64,000 bases of DNA, taken from positions 128,001-192,000 of the forward strand of contig CM000430.1 of NCBI GenBank assembly GCA_000165345.1, written 5' to 3'. A model generated the notes under the pieces. The model saw nothing but the letters and a program-made list of their open reading frames with translations. It was not told the origin of the DNA and ran no database searches. Position 1 is the first letter of the stretch. Each line of letters begins with the position of its first letter. The translations under genes were made by a program, and so were the position numbers. Positions 14 through 59,269 of the stretch are shown piece by piece.

Positions 14-5557
<5,544 letters not shown>

Positions 5558-6424: not shown

Positions 6425-7912
6425 ATGAAACCAGAAACTAATATTAAAGAGGTAGGTTTAGATTTATTTTTAATACATTAAATTGGCTATTTATACGTCA
6501 TAAATGTGAATATTTATATACTAATAATTAATTTCCTTATTATTTATTTGAATTCTTGAAAACTTATTGAAAAACAGGAACAGAAACAGAATATAAATGG
6601 TAATAACTCAAATAATAGCGATAATGAATATATGAAATATGTAGCTTTGTTCTGTTTAATCATTCAAACAGTGGCAGTAATTTTCTTTATGAGGATTTCT
6701 CGTATTAAAAAGTCAGAAAATGATGAATTATATTTTAATTCTTGTGCTGTGGTAATGTCAGAAATCCTCAAGCTTTTAAGTTCATTATTAATAGTATTAT
6801 ATTCTAATAATTTTAATATGGTTGAATTTTACAATACATTGAGATTTGAAGTATTTAACTCATTTAAAACTAATATTCTTGTAGGTGTTCCTGGGCTGCT
6901 CTATGTTGTCCAGAATAACTTACTATTTATTGCATTGTCAAATCTATCAGGAGCAGTATACCATGTTACTTATCAACTTAAGATCCTTGCAACGGCAATA
7001 TTATCAGTTATTATATTGAATAAACAACTTTCAAAAATAAGATGGTTGTCTTTACTTTTACTTACAATTGGAGCAGTACTAGTACAAACAGGAAAATCAT
7101 CGGAGTCAAAAACTCCAAATAACTCAGGTTTAGTTGCTGAAAATACTGACAATTTTTTGGGTCTTTGTTCAGTTTTATTAGCATGCTTTACCAGTGGTTT
7201 GGCAGGAGTTTTTGTTGAGAAACTTTTAAAAGATAGTAAAACCAGTATTTGGGGTAGAAATGTACAGCTTGCTTTGTATGGTATAATTTTTGGATTAATT
7301 GGATGCCTTACAGGAAAAGAAGGATTAGAAATTTCTCAAAAAGGTTTCTTTTTTGGATTCAACACTCTTGTTTGGTTTGTTATTATATTACAAGCTATTG
7401 GAGGAATTATTGTTGCTGCTGTGCTTAAATATGCCGATAACATCCTAAAATGCTTTGGTAATTCGTTTAGTATTATTATGAGCTGTATTCTATCCTGGTA
7501 TCTTGGTGATTATAGCATTACGCTAAATTTCTTTGCTGGTTCAGTTCTTGTAATTTGGTCAATATTTATTTATGGACTTGAAAGAGCTTTTCCTTGCTCT
7601 GAATATCTTCTCAAACTTAAACTAATTTTAAAAAGGAATTCCAGAAACAAAATTATTGCTAAATACAAGAATCTTAGAGAATCTAGCTCGGAAGCTTCTT
7701 TTGACTTTAATGACCAAAACTCTGGAACCAGGAATAATCATCTAAACAGCTTGAATAATCAAAATAAAAATAGCAATATACTGAGCAATAGCAAATTTAA
7801 GAATATCAATAACTTTATCAATCAGCAAAACCAAAATAGAGATAATTATGGCGAAATTGATGATGTTATACCAAAAGGTCTTCAGATGGCAATCATTTCT
7901 TCTGGTGTTTAA
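6425..7912 (+). CDS. Nucleotide-sugar transporter (SLC35 / UDP-Gal / CMP-Sia transporter family), proposed two exons 6425..6451 and 6578..7912
   Basis: The main ORF 6632..7912 has about 10 TM segments and the typical NST core (LLYVVQNNLLFIALSNL ... YQLKILATAILSVIILNKQLS ... LLLLTIGAVLVQ). The ORF stays open upstream of 6632 with no stop. An upstream ATG at 6425 (MKPETNIKE) is followed by a GTAGGT donor at 6452, and an acceptor AAAAACAG ends at 6577. This joins in frame, giving 18 extra codons before MKYVA. Confidence 0.75.
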
Positions 7913-7989: not shown

Positions 7990-8095
7990 TTTTATACAAC
8001 CCGCACCAACTCCATGAAATAATTGACTTCGCATGCACCATTGCAATGCATGCTCGAATTTTCGTGGAAGCGGGTCCAATGTGGACAAATATATA
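7990..8095. other. GC-rich structured island in a convergent 3'-3' spacer: ACCCGC ... GCATGCACC ... GCAATGCATGC ... GCGGGT-CCAATGTGGACAAAT
   Basis: ACCCGC/GCGGGT inverted repeats bracket about 75 nt containing two GCATGC boxes. Possible ncRNA or structured DNA element. Not a tRNA. Confidence 0.35.
8078..8092 (+). promoter_or_regulatory. AATGTGGACAAATAT dispersed motif copy (others at 1205..1220 minus, 1266..1275 plus, 18468..18485 minus, 52642..52658 plus)
   Basis: Five copies of the ATGTGGACAA 10-mer were read in 64 kb. Two share 15 of 16 nt. Confidence 0.5.
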
Positions 8096-8514: not shown

Positions 8515-10218
8515 TTACTCGTTTCCTTGTTGGTTCTCTACGGGTTTTACTTTAATGTAGTCATCAATACGGAGAAGCGTGATTGCAGCTTCTGTTGCAA
8601 ATCTTAAAGACTTAAGTTTGCTGATAGTTGGTTCCAAAACTCCTGCTTGGACATTATCTCTTACTGTTCCATTAATTAAATCAAGCCCAAAAAATTTGTA
8701 TTTATCTTGATCTTGAGATTTTACTGTTAAATCTGAAGAAGTTGGTTTAGTAGCATAGTTATTGAGTTGTCCTTGTTGGGCGCTTGCATGGTATGCTCTA
8801 AGTCTAGCAACCAAGTCTGTTGCATCTTTAGCGGAATTAATTGCCAAAGTTTTAGGAATAACCAAAAGTGCCTCAGCAAATTCCGCAATTGCAAGCTGTT
8901 CTCTAGACCCAAGAGTGCGAGCAAAGTCTTCTAAGTAAATACTCAAAGCAGCCTCCACTGCTCCTCCTCCTGCAACATATCCATTTGACTCTAAAAGCTT
9001 AGATACGGAACACAAAGCATCATTTAGAGAGCGCTCAAGCTCATCTAATAGAACCTCATTTGCTCCTCTTAATACAATTGAGGCTGCTCTATGAGTCTTG
9101 CAACCAAGGAACATCATATAATCAGTGTCTCCAATACGTTCTTCTCTTACTTCTTGGCATTCTCCAAGATAAGCCGGGTCAAATGATTCCTCTGAATCCT
9201 CTAATTGTGCCATTGTAAGGCAGATTGTCGCTCCTGTTGCCTTGGCAATTCTTCTTAAATCAACCTTCTCTACCCTTCTAACTGCAATACAACCAGCTGA
9301 GACAAAATATTTCATGCATTGATCATCAATACCCCCTGAAGTCAAAACTACATTACAACCTGTAGCCAAAATCTTTTCAATACGTTTGTGAATTACTTCC
9401 TTCTCTTCCAGTCTAATCCTTGCAAGTTCTTTTGGATCTTCCAATTCAACACGAATACCCATTTGCATTCTGTATTGTTTTAAAGGAAAGTCTATACATG
9501 CAATTTTGACATTTTTTACAGACGTTGGCATTCCCTGGCAAGCTCTACCTGTATGGGAGAGAGCATAACCCTCAACCAAAAATGACTCTGATAAACCTTT
9601 ACCATGAGTTTTTAATATGTTCAAAGATTTTACTGGATACTTGACAGCTCCTGTTAAGGGGTCTGTAGCCTTTACTGTCATTATTGAATCTACTACCAAC
9701 TTCCCAAAAAACTCTGAGTCTGCTCCTGCTAGCTTTGATGATAGCACAGTTTTAGCAACATTAAGGCAGCATTCCTCACTAATTGTCTCATTAATAGATA
9801 AAGACCCAGAAATATATCTCACACACTCCTTTAGAGCCAACTTATAACCAGAAATTACATTTGAAGGATGAGACCCATTGCTAACTAAAGATGTACCTCT
9901 CCTTAGTAACTCAGCAGCTAATAAAACTACAGATGTTGTGCCATCCCCCACTTCCTTGTCCTGTAGCTCACTCAAATCTACTAGTACTCGCCCAGCTGGG
10001 TGCTTTACTTCCAATTGGCTTAAAATTGTAGCACCATCATTAGTTACTATTACTTCGCCCACCTCATCAACAAGCATCTTATCCAACCCTTGGGGTCCCA
10101 ATGACGACTTTAATATATTTGCTATCGACATTACTGCTGTCAAATTATTAGACCTCACATCACTCCCATGTTGTCGCTCTCCGTGAATTGATTGATCCTG
10201 AGATGGTTTTGCCAACAT
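8515..10218 (-). CDS. TCP1: T-complex protein 1 alpha subunit (CCT1/TCP-1 alpha chaperonin)
   Basis: 567 aa. Group II chaperonin motifs GPQGLDKMLVDEVGEVIVTNDGATIL, EVGDGTTSVVLLAAELL and the VAGGGAVE apical/equatorial signature. Confidence 0.9.
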   Translation of the reverse strand: MLAKPSQDQSIHGERQHGSDVRSNNLTAVMSIANILKSSLGPQGLDKMLVDEVGEVIVTNDGATILSQLEVKHPAGRVLVDLSELQDKEVGDGTTSVVLLAAELLRRGTSLVSNGSHPSNVISGYKLALKECVRYISGSLSINETISEECCLNVAKTVLSSKLAGADSEFFGKLVVDSIMTVKATDPLTGAVKYPVKSLNILKTHGKGLSESFLVEGYALSHTGRACQGMPTSVKNVKIACIDFPLKQYRMQMGIRVELEDPKELARIRLEEKEVIHKRIEKILATGCNVVLTSGGIDDQCMKYFVSAGCIAVRRVEKVDLRRIAKATGATICLTMAQLEDSEESFDPAYLGECQEVREERIGDTDYMMFLGCKTHRAASIVLRGANEVLLDELERSLNDALCSVSKLLESNGYVAGGGAVEAALSIYLEDFARTLGSREQLAIAEFAEALLVIPKTLAINSAKDATDLVARLRAYHASAQQGQLNNYATKPTSSDLTVKSQDQDKYKFFGLDLINGTVRDNVQAGVLEPTISKLKSLRFATEAAITLLRIDDYIKVKPVENQQGNE

Positions 10219-51051: not shown

Positions 51052-52152
51052 CTATTTCGTAATCTTCATCATATTATTTTGGTATGTAAAGAAGTAATCT
51101 TGATCAGTAGGTCTTGTAGTAGCTTTTTGAAGTTCTCCATAAACGACTTTAGCATCAAATTTGGGATCATTAAGCCTTCCTAACCTGATCATAGCTTCAT
51201 TCTTCTCCTTGAAATCTTTCTTGACAATTGTATTAGGCATATCAAATTCTGTATTCCACATTACTCTACCCTGAAATACTGTGACTCTAAATCCTTCTGA
51301 AACCTTTAATCTTGTTTCATGATCATGACTAAATTCACTAATTACATGCTCCCTAAGGCTTTTAATATCTTTGAATCCGAAAACTCTTGGACCTGTTTCA
51401 TATTTTGAAGATGCATCCAATAATAAATATGTAACATTGGTTTTATCTTCGCTTGCTTGAGAGTAAAATGCAAAGCACCTTCCTCTAGAAATGATTGCAA
51501 GAATGGAATATTTTGGTGAATAATAACTTAGAATTTCATTAAATGCTTCATCAACTGTAACAGAAAGTCCATCCCTATGTAACTTCATGATTTGTAAATC
51601 AGGATTTGACTTATATTCTTTAATTATATCAGAAGTCTCTCTTCTTTCTTTGGCCGCTTCGAATATTTTTTGAATACTTTTTTCTGTAGTAACTAATCCA
51701 TATTCGTTCTTAATACCCCATAATAAGCAGGCAAATTGTCTTTGTGTTTCAGTGATAATTGGTATTCCATATTCATAGGGGACCAAAATATACCACATAA
51801 TGCTTTTACTTTGTTTTGAGAGAGTTTCCACATTTTCCGTTTCGTTTTCATTAATTCCAAATTTATTTGCTATTTCAATACTTGCAATGCTAGTTCTTGT
51901 GGTTGTAGAATATGACGAGATATTGATTTTAATTTTTTTTTCACTTCTAGATCTAGGAGCGCAACATTGCATAAAAGGTCGTAAAAAAAGCTGAATAGGA
52001 GAAAGAGCCTCCTCTTTAACTATTCTTTGTGGTGGCTTTTTGCATCTTGGGTCGTTTACTAATATAAAAGAATCAAATGAAAGTCCTTCAGAAAAAGAAT
52101 ATTCATCTCTAAAAGCGTCATACTGTGGCTTTGATGCTGTTGTAACTGACAT
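51052..52152 (-). CDS. Hypothetical protein (366 aa)
   Basis: Clean ATG-to-stop ORF with ordinary, not low-complexity, composition. No motif recognised by eye. Confidence 0.45.
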   Translation of the reverse strand: MSVTTASKPQYDAFRDEYSFSEGLSFDSFILVNDPRCKKPPQRIVKEEALSPIQLFLRPFMQCCAPRSRSEKKIKINISSYSTTTRTSIASIEIANKFGINENETENVETLSKQSKSIMWYILVPYEYGIPIITETQRQFACLLWGIKNEYGLVTTEKSIQKIFEAAKERRETSDIIKEYKSNPDLQIMKLHRDGLSVTVDEAFNEILSYYSPKYSILAIISRGRCFAFYSQASEDKTNVTYLLLDASSKYETGPRVFGFKDIKSLREHVISEFSHDHETRLKVSEGFRVTVFQGRVMWNTEFDMPNTIVKKDFKEKNEAMIRLGRLNDPKFDAKVVYGELQKATTRPTDQDYFFTYQNNMMKITK

Positions 52153-52603
52153 TTTCAGAATCTTATTCTATCTTTATTTATAGGCTTACAATGATTAGCT
52201 AACTTGTTGCTTTCACACAGAACTTTTTAAAACTTGAGTAGAGTAAACAAACTTCTAAATTTTTGTACATTAACTTTTATTTCTATTTGTTTATTTTCCT
52301 GATACTTATTTTATTAATAAATCAGCATCACAAAACATGTCAAAATGACGTAATAGGCGCCGCGAATTACCCGCCACGGCCTTGTTTTCATGTTGACATT
52401 TTAAAAGAAAATATTTTTCATGGGGGTAATATTTTTGGCAAGTGAAAGGTTTAATAAAATGATATTAAATTTTGTCAATTTACTTAGTATTCTATGCCTC
52501 TATATTTAGTTGTAAATATTCCGGAAAATTATATTAATTATTTTAAATCAGCAAAATTTAATTAAATCTCATTAGGAGTTTTTGTTTAATTTCATGCATT
52601 TTT

Positions 52604-52693
52604 TTGCATGCATGACTGGTTATTCTTTTTTGAATTAAAATTTAATGTGGACAAATATTTAGTACCGGTGTATTAGTAATGCGCATGCATGTG
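52604..52693. promoter_or_regulatory. Motif cluster upstream of the LCCL gene: TGCATGCATG, AATGTGGACAAAT, GCGCATGCATG
   Basis: tttgcatgcatgactgg ... ttaatgtggacaaatat ... aatgcgcatgcatgtg, 210-300 bp upstream of the ATG at 52906. Confidence 0.55.
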
Positions 52694-52905
52694 AAAGAAA
52701 AAATAATTGCAAAATGTTTGTATAGAATGAATTTTATAGAATTGTATAATTTGACCAAAAAAAAATTGCATGTATATTTATTAACTTTTTTTTCTTTAAA
52801 TTAAGAGTTATTAAAGAAAAAGTGGAGTGAACCAGAATTAAAAGAAAAAAGAAGAAATTCACTCTTCATTTACAAGAATTAGAGTTGAGAATAATTGACT
52901 AGAGG

Positions 52906-55900
52906 ATGAGTGCTACTCAGGGAAAAGCAGAATATGGAAAAAAGAGAGTGAGTACTATTATTAAGGCTTTGGCATGGATTGCAATAGTGTGTCTAGTTAA
53001 AAATGCAAGCTCAGAGGGATTATCTGGAGAGAAAAGGCATATTTCTAAGGACTATTGTAGAGCAGTCCCATTAGATGGATTTGCAGATTTTGCTGAATGC
53101 GCACCTCCAAGCAATGAAGCAGAATACACTATTGAAGTGGTCCCAGTGGTCGCATCTGGAATCGATTTAAGAAGTGAGGTAGATATAGTTTTATATGGAG
53201 GTGATGATACACAGACATCCCCAATTCCAATTTCATCGTCAATAACAGGTACTGTTAGATCTTTAAGTACAAAACAATTGGATATTGGAGCTCCACAGCA
53301 AGTCGGAATATTCTTAAAGAGTAATACAAGGTGGAAGTGTTTAAAGATTACTGTTGTTAAAGATTATAGATATTGGGTATTCTCATGTAATGGAGAACTT
53401 ACTCCTCAACACCGTTCATTGACTTATGGAGTTACTGGAAATAAATTATATACTGCAAGCATTATGACAGGAAAGAGTGGTGAAGCAGGAACAAAAGGTG
53501 GAGTAGAAATTAGCATTTCAGGAGAAGCTGGTCAAAGTGATAAGATTTTACTCAAACAAGGATTTTACTCTTCAACTTTGAGGAGGATGCTTTTCAGAGC
53601 TGCAGATGTTGGAAAGATTAAGGAAATTAGTTTAACAAATACAGCTTTAGATGATCCGTGGTACTGTGAGTATGTTAGAATTCAGTCTGAGGATGGTGAA
53701 AGTATCGACTTTACCGTTAGAAGATGGATTGGAAGGCCATTCTCTCAGATGGTAACACTAACAAACAGTATATCTGGGTCAGAAAACTCTCCTGCTCAAG
53801 ATATTGACTGCAATACCAGAGCAATTGATATTGTCCCAAGAGCTCCAGTTACTACAATTACTTTCAAAGTCAAATGCCCAGTAAATTGTGGTTCAGAAAA
53901 GTTTGCAACCATTTATGGTACAGGAATTCATGCAGCTTCATCTTCAATCTGTAAATCTGCGATATTTGACAATATTCTAACTCCTTCAGGAGGAGAGTTA
54001 GTACTAACAATAGTCCCAAGTTTACCAAAATATTTTGGTGGAAAGGGTGCATACTCTATAGAATCTTCAGATTTCTTCCCAAAGCCTGGAAGTGAAATTT
54101 TTAGCTTCTATACATATTTGAGTGACTCTATTGACTTTATACAGTCTGAAGTCAGAGTCGTTGATTCTACAGGTAACTTGGCATCTTCTGGTAGGCTTGA
54201 AGTCAGAAGAAATGGTATTTGGGGAAGCGTTTCATTAAAGGGAGAATCTACTGTAACTAATGAACTTGCTGCTACACTTGCATGCAAACAATTAGGTTAC
54301 TCATTTGGATCCATTCTTCCTTCTTGCACATATGTTAATGGAGGTAACGTTTGTACTCCGAAAGGATACCCAATCTCTGTTGCTGGATTACAATGTAATG
54401 GAAATGAAATCGATATTGCTCAGTGTATGTTCGAGGAACCAAAGACTACTAATAGCATGACAACTGTTGCCATACAGTGCAGTTCAATTGCTCCAAAAGA
54501 TACGATGCATGGAGCTCTCAGAATTGTTGATTCCACCGGTGTACCTTCAAGAACAGGAGCAGGAAGACTACAAGTTTATATGGATGGATGGGGATCAGTA
54601 TGTAGTGATGGTTTTAATAGTGTTTCTGAAAGAGTTGCATGTACACAAATGGGATACTCTGGAGTTAAAAATGGAGGAGCTTCAACTAAAAGTTGTAAAG
54701 ACTTTGGAGGCGAAGATGTATGCGGAAGTGAACAAGAACAAATTCTTATGGTAGATGTTGCATGTAAGGGTGACGAAGAAAAGCTTGTCAACTGTCAGCA
54801 CTACTCATCAAATAATATTTACTGTGTACATGAGGAAGATGTTGTTGTAAGCTGCTCAGGATCAGGTGACCCAACAGGTAATGGTGCCTATTTATCTGAA
54901 AAGTCTCCGTCAATCCTGCCATCTATTCCATACAATAAGTACCAATTCGACTGTAATGACAGTCCTGTAAGTATTAAAGGTGCTGTAGGTACAGGTGCAA
55001 TCATTGCATGTCCATCAAAATGTTCTAAAGCATCTTCTCACATTAAGGGAAGCTATATCTACTCTGACGATACTCCTGTATGTAAGGCTGCCATTCATGC
55101 AGGTATTATCACTGATGAAGTTGGAGGAGAAGTTGTTATTACCTTTGTATCTGGTCAGAAACAGTACTTTGGAAGCTTTAACAATGGAATTCAAAGTAGA
55201 AGTATTGAAACAAGCGCCTCTAAATCAAAGATTAGAGGCTCAGATTTAGCTTCTATAAGATCCTTCACTATTTCAAAGCTTTCAGCAACAATTAACAGAA
55301 GAGAAAATGATTTCAGTCAACAAATTGTTAATGAAGAGCTTCCAGCTATTTCTCCCCCAGTATTATCATGGGTCTGCCCAACAGACTATCCTGGATTCAG
55401 AGGTGGAAAGAATGACTTTATTGATGCCACTAACTTACCAGGAGGTGATAGAATCAGCTCTCTAGATGATTTTACTATCTCTGCTAGAGTTCTCATTACT
55501 GGTGGACAAGGTACCTGGAGAACTATTATGGCACATACTGAATGCTTGGGTATATCATTATACATTGATAGAGACAACACTATTCATTTTGATCAATTAT
55601 GTAATTCTGATACTGTCTCAACTTCATATGCACCAGCTATTAACGAATGGTTATTCTTAACTGTTGCATACAACTTTAATGAAAAGAGAGTTGTAATGTA
55701 TATAAATGGTAACGAAGTTGCTAATAAGGTAACAGGTTTTGTTTTCAATCTCAAGACTAAGCTAATAATTGGAAGAAGTTCAGATTCTGACAGTGAATAC
55801 TTCTTGGGCCAAATTTCTAATGTTAATATATGGGATAAATTCTTCACTCCAAGTGAGGTCAAATCTGCTATGGAGAAATCTTGGCATCAAAAAGGAATAT

Positions 55901-56649
55901 CTGGTGGTGGAGAGCTTAAAGGTAAAAGACATACAATTGATGGAAGACAATGTATCACTTCCTGTCAATCAGAATTCCCTGTTGCCTATAAAATGGGAGG
56001 AATTAACTATGCAACTAATCCATCCATTCAAATCAAATGCGATACTAATTTAGACAATGCAAGATTCTCATCAAAAGCCAATAAATTCAGAGTTGAATGC
56101 CCAGCTGGATGTTCAAAAAGTCGATATCCTGTTAAAGGTCATAAAGTATATTCACCAAAGAGTTCAATCTGTCAAGCCGCTATGCATATGGGCATAATAA
56201 GTGATACAGGTGGTGAATTTGTTGTTGCTCTTTATCCAGGACTTAAGCAATATACTGGGGCTGCTGGAAAAAACAATATTGTTAGTACCGATGAAAATAC
56301 TCCACAAACAAGATCATTTGTTGTTGGAGCTGCTCCAAAACCAAGACAACTTACTTGCTCTGATACTGCAAGCTTTATTTTCCAGTTACCAGTTGGTGAG
56401 AGAGAACTAGTTTCTTGCCCAAGCAACTGTGGATTAGAATCTGATGCTAAAGTCTACGGAATGGATATCTATTCTCCTATAAGTTCTATTTGCAGAGCTG
56501 CAATTCATGCTTCCAAGCTTTCTTCTGGCACTGCTGGTGAAATTCAAATTGAAGTCGGACCTGAGCAATTCCACTTTGAACAATCTAATAGAAATGGTAT
56601 TCAGTCTCAATCTACAGGGTATTATATAAGAAGCTTCAAAATAGTCTAA
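52906..56649 (+). CDS. Secreted multi-domain adhesive protein of the apicomplexan LCCL family (CCp3/LAP1-like): signal anchor, PLAT/LH2-like region, 4 LCCL domains, 2 SRCR domains, pentraxin/LamG-like domain
   Basis: Four LCCL cores (CPVNCGSEKFATIYGTGIHAASSSICKSAIFDNILTPSGGELVLTIVPSLPKYFGG; CPSKCSKASSHIKGSYIYSDDTPVCKAAIHAGII..GGEVVITFVSGQKQYFGS; CPAGCSKSRYPVKGHKVYSPKSSICQAAMHMGIIS; CPSNCGLESDAKVYGMDIYSPISSICRAAIHASKL). Two SRCR-like blocks (GRLEVRRNGIWGSVS...LACKQLGY; GRLQVYMDGWGSVCSDGF...VACTQMGY). A LamG/pentraxin-like block (ISARVLITGGQGTWRTIMAH...FLTVAYNFNEKRVVMYINGNEV...IGRS). This domain combination is specific to CCp/LAP proteins. Confidence 0.85.
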   Translation: MSATQGKAEYGKKRVSTIIKALAWIAIVCLVKNASSEGLSGEKRHISKDYCRAVPLDGFADFAECAPPSNEAEYTIEVVPVVASGIDLRSEVDIVLYGGDDTQTSPIPISSSITGTVRSLSTKQLDIGAPQQVGIFLKSNTRWKCLKITVVKDYRYWVFSCNGELTPQHRSLTYGVTGNKLYTASIMTGKSGEAGTKGGVEISISGEAGQSDKILLKQGFYSSTLRRMLFRAADVGKIKEISLTNTALDDPWYCEYVRIQSEDGESIDFTVRRWIGRPFSQMVTLTNSISGSENSPAQDIDCNTRAIDIVPRAPVTTITFKVKCPVNCGSEKFATIYGTGIHAASSSICKSAIFDNILTPSGGELVLTIVPSLPKYFGGKGAYSIESSDFFPKPGSEIFSFYTYLSDSIDFIQSEVRVVDSTGNLASSGRLEVRRNGIWGSVSLKGESTVTNELAATLACKQLGYSFGSILPSCTYVNGGNVCTPKGYPISVAGLQCNGNEIDIAQCMFEEPKTTNSMTTVAIQCSSIAPKDTMHGALRIVDSTGVPSRTGAGRLQVYMDGWGSVCSDGFNSVSERVACTQMGYSGVKNGGASTKSCKDFGGEDVCGSEQEQILMVDVACKGDEEKLVNCQHYSSNNIYCVHEEDVVVSCSGSGDPTGNGAYLSEKSPSILPSIPYNKYQFDCNDSPVSIKGAVGTGAIIACPSKCSKASSHIKGSYIYSDDTPVCKAAIHAGIITDEVGGEVVITFVSGQKQYFGSFNNGIQSRSIETSASKSKIRGSDLASIRSFTISKLSATINRRENDFSQQIVNEELPAISPPVLSWVCPTDYPGFRGGKNDFIDATNLPGGDRISSLDDFTISARVLITGGQGTWRTIMAHTECLGISLYIDRDNTIHFDQLCNSDTVSTSYAPAINEWLFLTVAYNFNEKRVVMYINGNEVANKVTGFVFNLKTKLIIGRSSDSDSEYFLGQISNVNIWDKFFTPSEVKSAMEKSWHQKGISGGGELKGKRHTIDGRQCITSCQSEFPVAYKMGGINYATNPSIQIKCDTNLDNARFSSKANKFRVECPAGCSKSRYPVKGHKVYSPKSSICQAAMHMGIISDTGGEFVVALYPGLKQYTGAAGKNNIVSTDENTPQTRSFVVGAAPKPRQLTCSDTASFIFQLPVGERELVSCPSNCGLESDAKVYGMDIYSPISSICRAAIHASKLSSGTAGEIQIEVGPEQFHFEQSNRNGIQSQSTGYYIRSFKIV

Positions 56650-57393: not shown

Positions 57394-57407
57394 GTATGCA
57401 TGCAAAA
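57394..57407. promoter_or_regulatory. TGCATGCA box 50 bp upstream of MFS transporter ATG
   Basis: gtatgcatgcaaaa read directly. Further GCATGC boxes at 8030, 8045, 12696, 16135, 18259, 31306, 35720 and 45096 (the 45096 copy is doubled, GCATGCGCATGC). Confidence 0.5.
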
Positions 57408-57454: not shown

Positions 57455-59269
57455 ATGAGTGTTGGAACAGTTTCAACAGCATCAACCCCATCAAAATCCC
57501 ATAGATCTAGGTCTGAATCTTATCAAAAGTTAAAAGAAGAAAAAGATTTTGCAACAACATCTTTTGAAAGCGATACAGATGATGGTTTGTATAGAAAATT
57601 GATACCAAGTCTTTATGCTTACTCCTCTCTACATGGATGTATTGACCAGCTAATCCCTACAAACTACAAATTCTTAGAAAGTTCGATAGGGCTCTCACCA
57701 AAATCTTTGGGAATGCTAACTTTTGCTCAGAAATTCACACAAGGACTATTCACAATTATTAGTGGGATAATATGTGACCGACAAATAAGTGCTACTAATA
57801 AACAACTTGAGAATAACCACAAGAATTTAATTTCCCTAGAGGAAGGTGATAGAGACTCAGAATTTACTCAAGTCAGTTATAGAAATGTAGAGGATGGAAA
57901 TCAAAGTGGAAACAGGATAGAAAGGGGGAGTGAATATGGAGAGGAGGAATACGAGGCTAGAAGCCTTTCCTCCAGGTCAGAGGCTTCTGAAGAAAGCCAA
58001 CTTCTACAGTACTCGGAAGATATTAATTTCTTAAGAATTTGGCCTGCCTATTTTATGATGGTAACCACAATTGGATGGGGAATGGTAATGATTTCAATGA
58101 TATTTGCCTCAAATTTTCTCCAAATGCTTATCTTACTTTGCTTCATGGGAGCTTTTTTGTCACTCATGGGGCCGCTCACACAATCAGTCATTGGAACTTT
58201 CAACAATATTGGTAGAAGTGAGCATTTTGGAAATCTCTTTCTCTCACAAAATATTGGAAGACTATTCTGTATCTCTGCTACTGCCAATATTATGGGGCAT
58301 TACTTTGACTTCACATGGGCCCTACTTACATTTTCTTTCCTCTCCTTCTTGTTTTCTATTTTCCTATACAAGTCATGCATTGAACATGCACTCCAACAAA
58401 AAGGCGGCAAAACCCTCCATAGGAAAATTTTGTCATATACCGGCGAACATGCATATATTATCCACATAAGTATGCAAATAAGAGGAATTTTTAGTAAGTT
58501 ATCATATGGAAAGTTGAAGGAATTTGTAAATGATTATTCATATGTGATATCAAATAAAAGTGCCTGGTTGATGTTGGTGATGGGTATTGTTAATGGAATC
58601 CCAAGACACTCTTTAAATTTTACAATGATGTGGTTACAATATTGTGGGTTAAGCCCTTTATTGGCAACTACAGTATATTCCTCCAGTTGGATCTCTGCAA
58701 TTTTGATCTCTCCATTTGTAGGGAAGGCTTCTGATTATATTGAGTCCATTTATCCTTGGATTGGAAGACAAGCATTGGCTCAAACTGCTATATTATTAAG
58801 AATTATATTTATGATCATCCTATTGAGATATATTCCTTGGGGAAGTCATTATTTCTTCTACTACTTAGTGGTCAGTATTTTAATTGGTTTTATGGCAGGA
58901 TGGCCAGGAGTTGGAGCGAGCAGACCTATTCTTTGCCAAATTGTTTTGCCTCACCATAGAGCAACATTGTTTGCAATGTTTTCATTATTTGAGACCATCG
59001 GATCTGCAATCTTTGGAGCTCCTATTGTTGGTCTTTTAGCTCAAAATTATTTTGGTTATGATTCATCCCTAAAGAAGGAAATTGGAGAAATTATATCATC
59101 CAACAATCTACATGCTTTACAAACTCTTCAACTTAATGCAAATGCTCTCGCTAATTCCATGCTTATTATGACTGTTATTCCCTGGATCCTAACTATTGCT
59201 TTATTTGGGCTTTTGAGATTAACCTATAAGCAAGATCAAAATGGTAATAACCAGGCAATTCTTAGCTAA
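57455..59269 (+). CDS. Major-facilitator-superfamily-type transporter with large acidic cytoplasmic loop
   Basis: About 12 hydrophobic helices in a 6+6 arrangement. G-x3-DR motif after TM2 (FTIISGIICDRQ). Loop rich in E/S. Confidence 0.55.
   Translation: MSVGTVSTASTPSKSHRSRSESYQKLKEEKDFATTSFESDTDDGLYRKLIPSLYAYSSLHGCIDQLIPTNYKFLESSIGLSPKSLGMLTFAQKFTQGLFTIISGIICDRQISATNKQLENNHKNLISLEEGDRDSEFTQVSYRNVEDGNQSGNRIERGSEYGEEEYEARSLSSRSEASEESQLLQYSEDINFLRIWPAYFMMVTTIGWGMVMISMIFASNFLQMLILLCFMGAFLSLMGPLTQSVIGTFNNIGRSEHFGNLFLSQNIGRLFCISATANIMGHYFDFTWALLTFSFLSFLFSIFLYKSCIEHALQQKGGKTLHRKILSYTGEHAYIIHISMQIRGIFSKLSYGKLKEFVNDYSYVISNKSAWLMLVMGIVNGIPRHSLNFTMMWLQYCGLSPLLATTVYSSSWISAILISPFVGKASDYIESIYPWIGRQALAQTAILLRIIFMIILLRYIPWGSHYFFYYLVVSILIGFMAGWPGVGASRPILCQIVLPHHRATLFAMFSLFETIGSAIFGAPIVGLLAQNYFGYDSSLKKEIGEIISSNNLHALQTLQLNANALANSMLIMTVIPWILTIALFGLLRLTYKQDQNGNNQAILS

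Follow-up and report, generated by a model that had tools for sequence, protein, structure and literature searches.

CpCCp3 (cgd2_790), the LAP1-type LCCL-domain protein of Cryptosporidium parvum, and a conserved four-box promoter module upstream of its gene

The gene found at 52906..56649 (+) of the window (the whole stretch of DNA analysed, 64,000 nucleotides) is cgd2_790 / CpCCp3 of C. parvum, which was already annotated. Its product is the single Cryptosporidium LCCL-domain modular protein of LAP1 type (PfCCp3 / PbSR / TgSR1), and its domain layout is canonical. The protein is likely to follow a stepwise path from expression in the female to the crystalloid body. The gene adds nothing new: it was named in 2004, appeared in 2023 among the crystalloid-body genes that depend on AP2-F and was placed in the LAP1 clade in 2024. 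The only new element is a conserved promoter module of four boxes, a small lead.

The gene is an uninterrupted single-exon ORF of 1247 codons, with an ATG start and the stop included. Its translation matches GenBank EAK88868.1 / QOY43155.1 "CpCCp3" (C. parvum Iowa II) residue for residue. The computed mass (134.5 kDa) equals the value given for cgd2_790 (134.53 kDa, PMC9508764). The name dates from the 2004 genome annotation and paper; the placement of cgd2_790 in the LAP1 clade and the count of one LAP1 in Cryptosporidia come from the 2024 study (PMC11285972). The neighbouring 366-aa ORF (51052..52152, -; EAK88869.1) is divergently transcribed. Synteny around CCp3 is conserved within the genus Cryptosporidium: the order Omp85 / 366-aa gene / CCp3 / MFS / EF-hand is retained in C. 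xiaoi and C. andersoni. The features of the locus are given in the table.

Features of the CpCCp3 locus, in window coordinates; aa, amino-acid positions in CpCCp3
Feature	Position	Strand	Evidence
E2F-like GGCGCC site; within the shared intergenic region it lies in the half on the side of the 366-aa gene	52356..52361	.	
Box A, TGCATGCATG (AP2_1 motif; TGCATGCA at 52605-52612), about -300 from the ATG	52605..52614	+	
Box B, AATGTGGACAAAT, conserved core ATGTGGA	52644..52656	+	
Box C, GTACCGGT, conserved core TACCGG	52662..52669	+	
Box D, GCATGCATG	52683..52691	+	
Complete gene cgd2_790 = CpCCp3 (LAP1-type)	52906..56649	+	ORF list, exact GenBank match, mass match
Signal-peptide-like N-terminal region: basic n-region, h-region about aa 17-31 (IIKALAWIAIVCLV)	52906..53010	+	Hydropathy; GenBank name
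Cryptic PLAT/LH2-like beta-sandwich, about aa 72-178	53119..53439	+	hhalign, AF2, Foldseek
PLAT/LH2, aa 182-281	53449..53748	+	Pfam PF01477 1.2e-13 (fragment); PDB 5-lipoxygenase; AF2 and Foldseek
LCCL domain 1, aa 300-393, 4 Cys	53803..54084	+	Pfam PF03815 2.3e-20; Cys count
SRCR domain 1, aa 422-525, 6 Cys	54169..54480	+	Pfam PF00530 2.5e-14; CD163 and PIT54 matches
SRCR domain 2, aa 550-651, 8 Cys	54553..54858	+	Pfam PF00530 3.3e-18; CD163 1.7e-30 (whole protein)
LCCL domain 2, about aa 681-772, Pfam core 690-770	54946..55221	+	Pfam PF03815 5.3e-24
LamG / concanavalin-A-like (pentraxin-like), aa 850-986	55453..55863	+	Fragment Pfam: Laminin_G_3 1.8e-19, Pentaxin 4.3e-6
LCCL domain 3, aa 1043-1132, 4 Cys	56032..56301	+	Pfam PF03815 1.8e-25; cochlin LCCL 1jbi_A 1.4e-9
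LCCL domain 4, aa 1149-1244, 4 Cys	56350..56637	+	Pfam PF03815 1.3e-22

The order of modules in CpCCp3 is signal peptide, PLAT, PLAT, LCCL, SRCR, SRCR, LCCL, LamG, LCCL, LCCL. It is collinear with the order of LAP1 / CCp3 / SR proteins and agrees with published descriptions (PMC11285972, PMC2211786, PMC10892792). The earlier note had read LCCL (four copies), SRCR, PLAT and LamG modules in one protein, and Pfam confirmed them in the whole protein and in fragments. Whole-protein values were 2e-89 for LCCL (4 stretches), 2.6e-30 for SRCR (2 stretches), 2.6e-18 for Laminin_G_3, with Pentaxin (6.9e-5) on the same stretch, and 1.5e-14 for PLAT. Nine sub-fragments were also scanned; every domain was placed separately, far over the gathering cut-off. 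A PDB sequence search returned CD163 SRCR, cochlin LCCL and 5-lipoxygenase PLAT. The cysteines form frameworks of the disulfide type (four in each LCCL, six in SRCR1, eight in SRCR2; 41 in the whole protein). Four Cys columns are invariant in an alignment of 16 LCCL copies, in which LCCL domain 2 keeps all four, one of them lying upstream of its Pfam core.

The first PLAT is cryptic: Pfam gave no match on aa 1-180. When compared with canonical PLAT by hhalign, aa 74-153 gave a probability of 94.7% and an E of 6e-8. The AF2 (AlphaFold2) model of aa 46-178 has a pLDDT of 89.5, and its best Foldseek matches are PLAT-bearing structures of lipoxygenase and pancreatic lipase (E 1.3e-7, TMq 0.68). 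A second PLAT in LAP1 was already reported in 2024 (PMC11285972). By hydropathy, aa 17-31 is the sole strongly hydrophobic segment; neither a second TM segment nor a hydrophobic C-terminal tail was found over the whole protein. This profile agrees with the GenBank name of EAK88868.1 ("with a signal peptide") and with the LAP1 type, an ER signal peptide at the N-terminus and no membrane anchor.

The assignment to the CCp3/LAP family, proposed from the sequence alone, is borne out by the exact GenBank match and by the closest homologues. These are SR1/CCp3/LAP1-type proteins of Toxoplasma (TgSR1), Besnoitia and Babesia, aligned in full length over 96-100% of the query (E = 0 to 1e-227). In a 12-sequence CCp3 alignment, Cys and Trp are invariant in each module. 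The orthologues scanned (Cryptosporidium, Toxoplasma, Besnoitia, Babesia and several further relatives) share the Pfam domain set, with some exceptions: a single SRCR stretch was scored in the Besnoitia paralogue P0010, and Laminin_G_3 was under threshold in B. ovata P0013 and in the relative P0012.

Two claims of the earlier note did not hold. Four LCCL modules are not more than in described CCp3 orthologues: four were found by Pfam in 12/12 orthologues scanned, and PfCCp3 carries four as well (PMC2211786; PMC10892792), together with tandem SR, LH2 and a pentraxin-like region, C. parvum orthologues being noted (PMC2211786). The impression of an excess may come from a 2013 count of three LCCL in CCp3 of Babesia bovis / Theileria equi (PMC3701008). 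That count probably reflects a detection limit; current Pfam finds four in both named Babesia orthologues tested (B. ovis and B. ovata). Nor is the family still held to be specific to Apicomplexa, LAPs occurring also in chromerids and colponemids (PMC11285972).

The promoter motif cluster reported earlier is real, correctly placed and conserved in seven Cryptosporidium species. TGCATGCA, AATGTGGACAAAT, TACCGG and GCATGCATG sit 300 to 215 bp upstream of the CpCCp3 ATG, in a module of 90 bp: TGCATGCA, 31 nt, ATGTGGA, 11 nt, TACCGG, 14 nt, GCATGCATG. The order A-B-C-D is kept in all seven species, also in C. andersoni, a distant species with a protein identity of only 70%. Box A: in five species GCATGC lies at -300/-297/-300/-311/-298, even though their intergenic region ranges from 652 to 847 bp; C. 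felis has it at -269 and C. andersoni at -189. Box B: ATGTGG is at the matching position in 5/7 species; C. felis has a degenerate form and C. andersoni the reverse complement (CCACATG). Box C: TACCGG is at the matching position in 6/7 species and TACCGT in C. canis; from composition one would expect about 0.05 sites in each region. Box D: GCATGCATG is an invariant 9-mer in 7/7 species, against an expectation from composition of about 0.001 per region.

The AP2_1 motif, already described, corresponds to TGCATGCA, and boxes A and D both match AP2_1 exactly. In vitro binding to such motifs is known for cgd2_3490 (female-specific), cgd1_3520, cgd8_3230 and cgd5_4250; AP2-F has been classed as AP2_1-like, and TGCAT-type motifs are also bound by several further AP2 proteins. 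Boxes of the TGCATGCA type, expected of a female promoter under AP2-F / AP2_1 control, are found at 52605-52614 and 52683-52691, conserved in 7 species. Neither the ATGTGGA nor the TACCGG box was described in the literature searched or listed in the published motif table (PMC12246861), and nothing relevant was found on TGTGGAC with Cryptosporidium. No ChIP/CUT&RUN occupancy or promoter mutagenesis for these boxes was found in the literature searched. The GGCGCC site (E2F motif as defined in PMC12246861) is probably outside the CCp3 promoter; GGCGCC or GCGCC is at the matching position in 7/7 species.

Within the window, TGCATGCA occurs 9 times (0.58 expected; 0/100 shuffles reach 9). At 3 loci, with 4 ATGTGGA sites in all, GCATGCA and ATGTGGA are no more than 150 bp apart, where 200 simulations give 0.095 sites as the expectation. 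Elsewhere in the window the box set recurs twice, inside ORF 14..5557 and in a 3'-3' spacer. The 90-bp module may tentatively be read as a composite cis-regulatory code that serves the AP2-F regulon (female / crystalloid-body). A further factor would bind ATGTGGA and/or TACCGG between two AP2_1 sites, and the other two window copies would mark unannotated stage-specific internal or antisense transcription starts. It is unlikely that the cluster has no specific meaning, its boxes being instances of the commonest over-represented motif, chance or low-complexity relics of the 13-mer, or boxes of the divergent 366-aa neighbour. Such a reading would fit the over-representation of TGCATGCA genome-wide and its use at every life-cycle time point (PMC12246861), its presence upstream of the MFS gene and within ORFs of the window, the restriction of the full box B 13-mer to the C. 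parvum / C. meleagridis group, and the position of one of the three exact window copies of AATGTGGACAAAT within a long ORF. It is opposed by the ordered set in seven species, by the invariance of GCATGCATG against its expected frequency, and by the spacing: in five species the boxes keep a near-constant distance from the CCp3 ATG, whereas their distance from the divergent gene shifts by about 100-200 bp. The CCp3-to-MFS spacer, used as a control, has no comparably deep conservation, and its box is lost beyond the closest species.

The suggested link with sexual stages and co-regulation with other CCp genes has been published for Cryptosporidium (Tandel 2023; PMC12246861). According to that work, cgd2_790 is transcribed in the female gamete and needs the female-specific AP2-F for full expression. 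Genes of crystalloid proteins are expressed exclusively in female gametes (Tandel 2023). Ablation of AP2-F gave log2FC values of -1.249 for cgd2_790, -1.54 for cgd7_1730 and -1.16 for cgd7_300 (Tandel 2023 Data Set S1); the effect on cgd2_790 is modest (about 2.4-fold) and could be indirect. AP2-F would probably act through the conserved TGCATGCA / GCATGCATG boxes, as several AP2 domains of C. parvum, that of female-specific cgd2_3490 among them, bind AP2_1-type motifs. The N-terminal signal sequence is predicted to direct CpCCp3 into the secretory pathway. By analogy with Plasmodium, in which LAP1 nucleates the LAP complex and its SRCR modules recruit LAP4-6 (PMC5482319), the protein would then form a complex with CpCCp1 and CpCCp2, which are of LAP2/4 type and co-regulated with it, and with further partners. 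This complex would reach the sporozoite crystalloid body; cgd2_790 is on the crystalloid-body gene list derived from hyperLOPIT (Tandel 2023). Plasmodium knock-outs and the AP2-F phenotype suggest that CpCCp3 may be needed for the formation of sporozoites or oocysts, hence for transmission. No experiments on the C. parvum protein itself (tagging, knock-out, interaction) were found in the literature searched; a shortage of crystalloid reagents is remarked in Tandel 2023.

The earlier label "adhesive secreted protein" was drawn from the domains, and current data place CpCCp3 in the crystalloid body. In the original "multi-adhesion domain" model, the protein is mainly an extracellular adhesin, exported to the gamete or sporozoite surface or to the parasitophorous vacuole, where lectin-like modules bind glycans, lipids or proteins of the host or of a partner cell. 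Every module is of a type known in extracellular binding proteins (SRCR/CD163, LCCL/cochlin, LamG, PLAT), PfCCp proteins were seen on the surface of gametocytes and surrounding emerging gametes (PMC2211786), and Cpa135/CpCCp1 is found in sporozoite apical organelles and the parasitophorous vacuole (PMC11285972). The model is nevertheless improbable: cgd2_790 is listed as a crystalloid-body protein by C. parvum spatial proteomics (Tandel 2023), CpCCp3 has no membrane anchor, and P. berghei LAPs are in the crystalloid, their knock-out affecting sporogony rather than gamete adhesion or fertilisation (PMC11285972; PMC2211786). A structural or matrix role in the oocyst wall or residuum, with deposition by the female gamete as for COWPs, is very improbable: it would suit the 41 cysteines, the female-specific expression, as for wall proteins (Tandel 2023), and the rank of CpCCp3, CpCCp1 and CpCCp2 among the highest-intensity proteins of the enriched oocyst-wall fraction, but the authors of that proteome suspect contamination by sporozoites or residual bodies (PMC9508764), and on loss of AP2-F crystalloid genes drop while oocyst-wall genes are unchanged (Tandel 2023), which separates the regulon of cgd2_790 from that of wall proteins. 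The localisation of CpCCp3 may be stage-dependent, given its abundance in the oocyst-wall proteome (PMC9508764) and the detection of the P. falciparum orthologue in the parasitophorous vacuole and on the surface of gametocytes (PMC2211786).

As a candidate transmission-blocking target cgd2_790 is reasonable, since LAP/CCp proteins are essential to Plasmodium transmission and loss of AP2-F blocks Cryptosporidium oocyst shedding. Should the four-box module turn out to be common to the crystalloid regulon, it would provide a compact female-specific promoter for transgenic work and would suggest that the AP2 proteins binding TGCATGCA have a partner factor.

Plasmodium CCp3 / LAP1 / PbSR / PSLAP, compared by literature description only, is of the same family type, with the module order LH2/PLAT, LCCL, two SRCR, LCCL, LamG/pentraxin-like, two LCCL. 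Like CpCCp3, it has a second N-terminal PLAT, four LCCL and a signal peptide (PMC11285972, PMC2211786). It is made in female sexual stages and is tied to the crystalloid organelle and to sporozoite formation (PMC11285972, PMC5482319, PMC2211786, PMC10892792); assembly of the LAP complex and its crystalloid localisation were demonstrated in P. berghei (PMC11285972, PMC5482319). Cryptosporidium, in contrast, has no ookinete or mosquito stage, and its crystalloid body is in sporozoites inside the oocyst (Tandel 2023). Cryptosporidia also lack LAP3 and LAP6 (PMC11285972 Table 1), so their LAP complex must be smaller. Toxoplasma gondii SR1 (TgSR1) is 41% identical over 96-99% of the length, with equal Pfam counts (4 LCCL, 2 SRCR, PLAT, LamG); coccidia have two LAP1 paralogues from a lineage-specific duplication, Cryptosporidium one (PMC11285972). 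Babesia CCp3 shows 33-36% identity across 96% of the length. In both B. ovis and B. ovata, Pfam gives 4 LCCL, 2 SRCR and PLAT; unlike in CpCCp3, LamG is weak in B. ovis (under the Pfam cut-off) and undetected in B. ovata. CpCCp1 (Cpa135, cgd7_1730) and CpCCp2 (cgd7_300), of LAP2/4 type, are LCCL-domain secretory proteins co-regulated with cgd2_790 by AP2-F, and share with it the crystalloid-body gene list (Tandel 2023) and the oocyst proteome (PMC9508764). Their layout differs: ricin, discoidin, NEC, one LCCL, levanase and ApicA, without SRCR or PLAT. Compared with the AP2_1 (TGCATGCA) cis-element of Cryptosporidium / Plasmodium, the CCp3 promoter has two AP2_1 boxes that flank conserved ATGTGGA and TACCGG.

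CCp3 (cgd2_790, GenBank EAK88868.1, a LAP1-type LCCL protein) is a gene already annotated and already studied, with an architecture canonical for its family. The uninterrupted ORF of 1247 codons and its Pfam matches lie exactly where the earlier note had placed the feature (52906-56649, plus strand), in a sequence that is AT-rich (~30-37% G+C), dense in genes and apparently poor in introns. The translation is also identical to C. parvum QOY43155.1, WKS76373.1 and WRK30866.1. Its 90%-identity cluster includes the orthologues of C. hominis, C. tyzzeri, C. meleagridis, C. ubiquitum, C. canis and C. felis. For the mass, computation gave 134.5 kDa; the oocyst proteome of PMC9508764 lists 134.53 kDa for 'cgd2_790 CpCCp3', the same value. 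These identities, with that of the neighbouring gene, assign the window to C. parvum, and the gene number assigns it to chromosome 2. Full-length distant homologues (96-100% query cover) are T. gondii SR1, Besnoitia SR proteins and Babesia CCp3-type proteins, the last named 'scavenger receptor cysteine-rich domain-containing'. Gene order in the window between 48784 and 59269 is: Omp85-family protein, 366-aa hypothetical gene (divergently transcribed, identical to EAK88869.1), CCp3, MFS transporter. This order, followed by an EF-hand gene taken from the annotations of the other species, is shared with C. xiaoi and C. andersoni. Synteny around CCp3 thus reaches from C. parvum to a gastric species, C. 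andersoni.

All the modules that had been read from the sequence (LCCL, SRCR, PLAT, LamG) were detected by Pfam in the whole protein: LCCL, 2e-89, four stretches; SRCR, 2.6e-30, two stretches; Laminin_G_3, 2.6e-18; PLAT, 1.5e-14. Pentaxin matched more weakly, on the same residues as Laminin_G_3. Rxt3 was not counted as an extra module, its weak match overlapping an LCCL domain. Nine sub-fragments were scanned singly, so that each module was located independently (table). Relatives with solved structures include the CD163 SRCR repeats, cochlin LCCL and 5-lipoxygenase PLAT. The four cysteines of the LCCL fold are invariant in every copy of an alignment of 16 LCCL copies. A profile of these 16 copies, run against a set of 5.8 billion proteins, returned short metagenomic or amphibian LCCL fragments and neither Cryptosporidium paralogue (CpCCp1, CpCCp2). 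The sole hydrophobic segment is at aa 17-31, preceded by a basic n-region; hydropathy of the whole protein gave neither a second membrane segment nor a hydrophobic C-terminus. This pattern is what a soluble secretory protein with a cleaved signal peptide would show.

Residues 1-180 had no Pfam match. A profile of orthologue residues 48-178 matched the canonical PLAT profile (179-292) with a probability of 94.7% and an E-value of 6e-8. AlphaFold2 models of aa 40-295 (pLDDT 85.7) are all-beta, consistent with two sandwiches in tandem; the N-terminal piece alone (aa 46-178) reached pLDDT 89.5. Its best Foldseek matches are lipoxygenase and pancreatic lipase structures (E 1.3e-7, TM 0.68), which carry PLAT domains. 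A previously undetected second PLAT of LAP1 was reported in 2024 (PMC11285972): the domain in CCp3 is a confirmation of that report, not a discovery.

The suggestion that CCp3 has more LCCL modules than described orthologues did not hold: four stretches were found by Pfam in 12/12 orthologues, and four are given in the family literature. Four is therefore canonical and was rejected as an unusual feature. The orthologues scanned were those of C. xiaoi, C. andersoni, T. gondii (two entries), Besnoitia (two paralogues), Babesia ovis and B. ovata, and four metagenomic or Logan relatives. The module order in a 2024 review (PMC10892792) agrees with Pradel et al. Three LCCL were reported in 2013 in CCp3 of B. 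bovis and T. equi (PMC3701008); this count is probably a limit of sensitivity, because with current Pfam the Babesia proteins scanned under a species name have four each. Two SRCR stretches were found in 11 of the 12, one being scored in the Besnoitia paralogue P0010. This LAP1 paralogue model (Besnoitia besnoiti BESB_050440) also has a Mago-nashi domain at its C-terminus (PF02792, 9.5e-74); the likeliest explanation is fusion or misprediction of the gene model, not a real architecture. Restriction of the family to Apicomplexa, also claimed earlier, is no longer held, since chromerids and colponemids have LAPs (PMC11285972).

Sequence, architecture, orthology, AP2-F-dependent female-stage expression and crystalloid proteome listing are established for CCp3. 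The checks advised in the earlier note (domains, orthology, sexual-stage expression, co-expression with the other CCp genes) had all been done and published. Cryptosporidia encode one LAP1, two LAP2/4 and one LAP5, without LAP3 and LAP6 (PMC11285972, Table 1). In P. berghei, six LAPs form a complex begun in macrogametocytes with LAP1-3, and LAP1 brings in LAP4-6 mainly via its SRCR modules (PMC5482319). Loss of LAPs leads to loss of the crystalloid and to a block of sporozoite development or egress (PMC11285972, PMC2211786). When the female-specific AP2-F is ablated in C. parvum, a focused set of female transcripts declines, foremost those of crystalloid-body proteins, and oocyst shedding by mice falls (PMC10233709). 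Data Set S1 of Tandel 2023 gives 16 down-regulated genes. The log2 fold changes are -1.54 for CpCCp1 (cgd7_1730) and -1.16 for CpCCp2 (cgd7_300); cgd2_2110, cgd8_4290 and cgd7_5140 are likewise reduced (Tandel 2023). The hyperLOPIT-derived crystalloid gene list of the same study includes cgd2_790 (summarised in PMC12246861); beside this listing, a role of the LCCL/SRCR protein as an adhesin of the surface or vacuole appears unlikely. Oocyst-wall genes are unchanged on AP2-F ablation (PMC10233709), and it is highly improbable that CCp3, found in the oocyst proteome, is a component of the oocyst wall or residuum. As a crystalloid protein, CCp3 would enter the ER by its signal peptide and join CpCCp1, CpCCp2 and other partners in a LAP complex with the LAP1-type protein as nucleator. 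The complex would be packed in vesicles that turn into the sporozoite crystalloid body, and CCp3 would be required for maturation of the sporozoite and oocyst.

The motif cluster noticed in the CCp3 promoter was borne out. The spacer of 753 bp between the divergent 366-aa gene and CCp3 contains four motifs within 52605-52691 (boxes A to D), and their ordered set recurs in the orthologous spacers of all six other species compared (C. meleagridis, C. ubiquitum, C. canis, C. felis, C. xiaoi and C. andersoni), hence in seven with C. parvum. Box D is invariant (7/7) and the GCATGC of box A is kept in all seven. TACCGG (box C) is found in 6/7, being TACCGT in C. canis; ATGTGG (box B) is found in 5/7, being reverse-complemented in C. 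andersoni and degenerate in C. felis. Numbers expected per spacer from base composition are ~0.001 for GCATGCATG and ~0.05 for TACCGG. The distance from box A to the CCp3 ATG is steady (297-311 bp in five species) and the spacer length is variable (652-847 bp), which indicates that the module belongs to CCp3, not to the divergent gene. On the side of the divergent gene, an E2F-like GGCGCC is conserved in 7/7 species (GCGCC in C. xiaoi). Motif positions suggest that the bidirectional spacer has two sides, one controlled by E2F and the other through AP2_1. The spacer between CCp3 and the MFS gene was used as a control: TACCGG is absent from it, and its lone GCATGC box is kept in the three closest species only. 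The TGCATGCA box of this spacer is present in C. meleagridis and C. ubiquitum and not in C. felis, C. xiaoi and C. andersoni; it is conserved less deeply than the CCp3 module.

Downstream of box D (52710-52760), ATTGCAAA and GTATAGAATGAATTTT(A/C)TAGA are shared by four species: C. parvum, C. meleagridis, C. ubiquitum and C. canis (orthologous spacers L004, L006 and L007). Both strings may belong to the CCp3 core promoter or to its transcription start.

Positions of promoter motifs, protein modules and further motif copies. L001 and L002: orthologous loci of other Cryptosporidium species. Nucleotide positions are those of the window unless stated.
Feature	Position	Strand	Location or method
Box A TGCATGCATG	52605-52614		CCp3 upstream spacer
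Box B AATGTGGACAAAT	52644-52656		CCp3 upstream spacer
Box C GTACCGGT	52662-52669		CCp3 upstream spacer
Box D GCATGCATG	52683-52691		CCp3 upstream spacer
E2F-like GGCGCC	52356-52361; L001 ~2500; L002 ~2549		spacer half nearer 366-aa gene (EAK88869.1)
TGCATGCA box	57397-57404		58 bp upstream of MFS transporter gene (57455..59269)
PLAT	aa 182-281		Pfam on sub-fragments
LCCL1	aa 300-393		Pfam on sub-fragments
SRCR1	aa 422-525		Pfam on sub-fragments
SRCR2	aa 550-651		Pfam on sub-fragments
LCCL2	aa 690-770		Pfam on sub-fragments
LamG	aa 850-986		Pfam on sub-fragments
LCCL3	aa 1043-1132		Pfam on sub-fragments
LCCL4	aa 1149-1244		Pfam on sub-fragments
(AAT)n microsatellite encoding poly-Asn	1180-1207
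AATGTGGACAAAT	1206-1218	minus	in ORF 14..5557
GTGCATGTGGACAATGCATG	1265-1284		in ORF 14..5557
TGCATGCA	1292-1299		in ORF 14..5557
TACCGGTA	1327-1334		in ORF 14..5557

A second set of the CCp3-promoter boxes (span 1206-1334) lies inside ORF 14..5557, directly after an (AAT)n/poly-Asn tract. It could be a stage-specific start, internal or antisense, or coincidental coding sequence. This ORF (1847 aa) had no Pfam match, and exact look-up with six alternative starts gave no match, probably because the poly-Asn length differs among isolates. Logan contigs with the neighbouring gene stop at the tract near 1180 (4/4 among the contigs listed). The broken contigs and the unmatched ORF are consistent with repeat length polymorphism between isolates. 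A third copy, of a motif pair, is found at 8031-8090: GCATGCA, ATGCATGC, then exact AATGTGGACAAAT. It lies in a 3'-3' spacer, where a promoter is not expected, flanked by the genes of a nucleotide-sugar transporter (6632..7912, plus strand) and a TCP-1/cpn60 chaperonin (8515..10218, minus strand). Rfam (gathering thresholds) and ARAGORN across the window found no ncRNA or tRNA to explain it. This copy might promote an antisense transcript or a non-coding one.

TGCATGCA is the known AP2_1 element, and AP2-F is classed as AP2_1-like (PMC12246861). In vitro binders of AP2_1 are: cgd2_3490 (female-specific), cgd1_3520, cgd8_3230 and cgd5_4250. The ATGTGGA and TACCGG boxes are missing from the published C. 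parvum motif table (PMC12246861). Full texts on Cryptosporidium searched for 'TGTGGAC' gave primer matches only and no motif description. As a working hypothesis, the deeply conserved composite promoter module of CCp3 is the sole lead beyond the literature. Box B (TGTGGACAAA) may resemble the female ten-base element of Plasmodium, TGTRNNYACA, at 9 of 10 positions.
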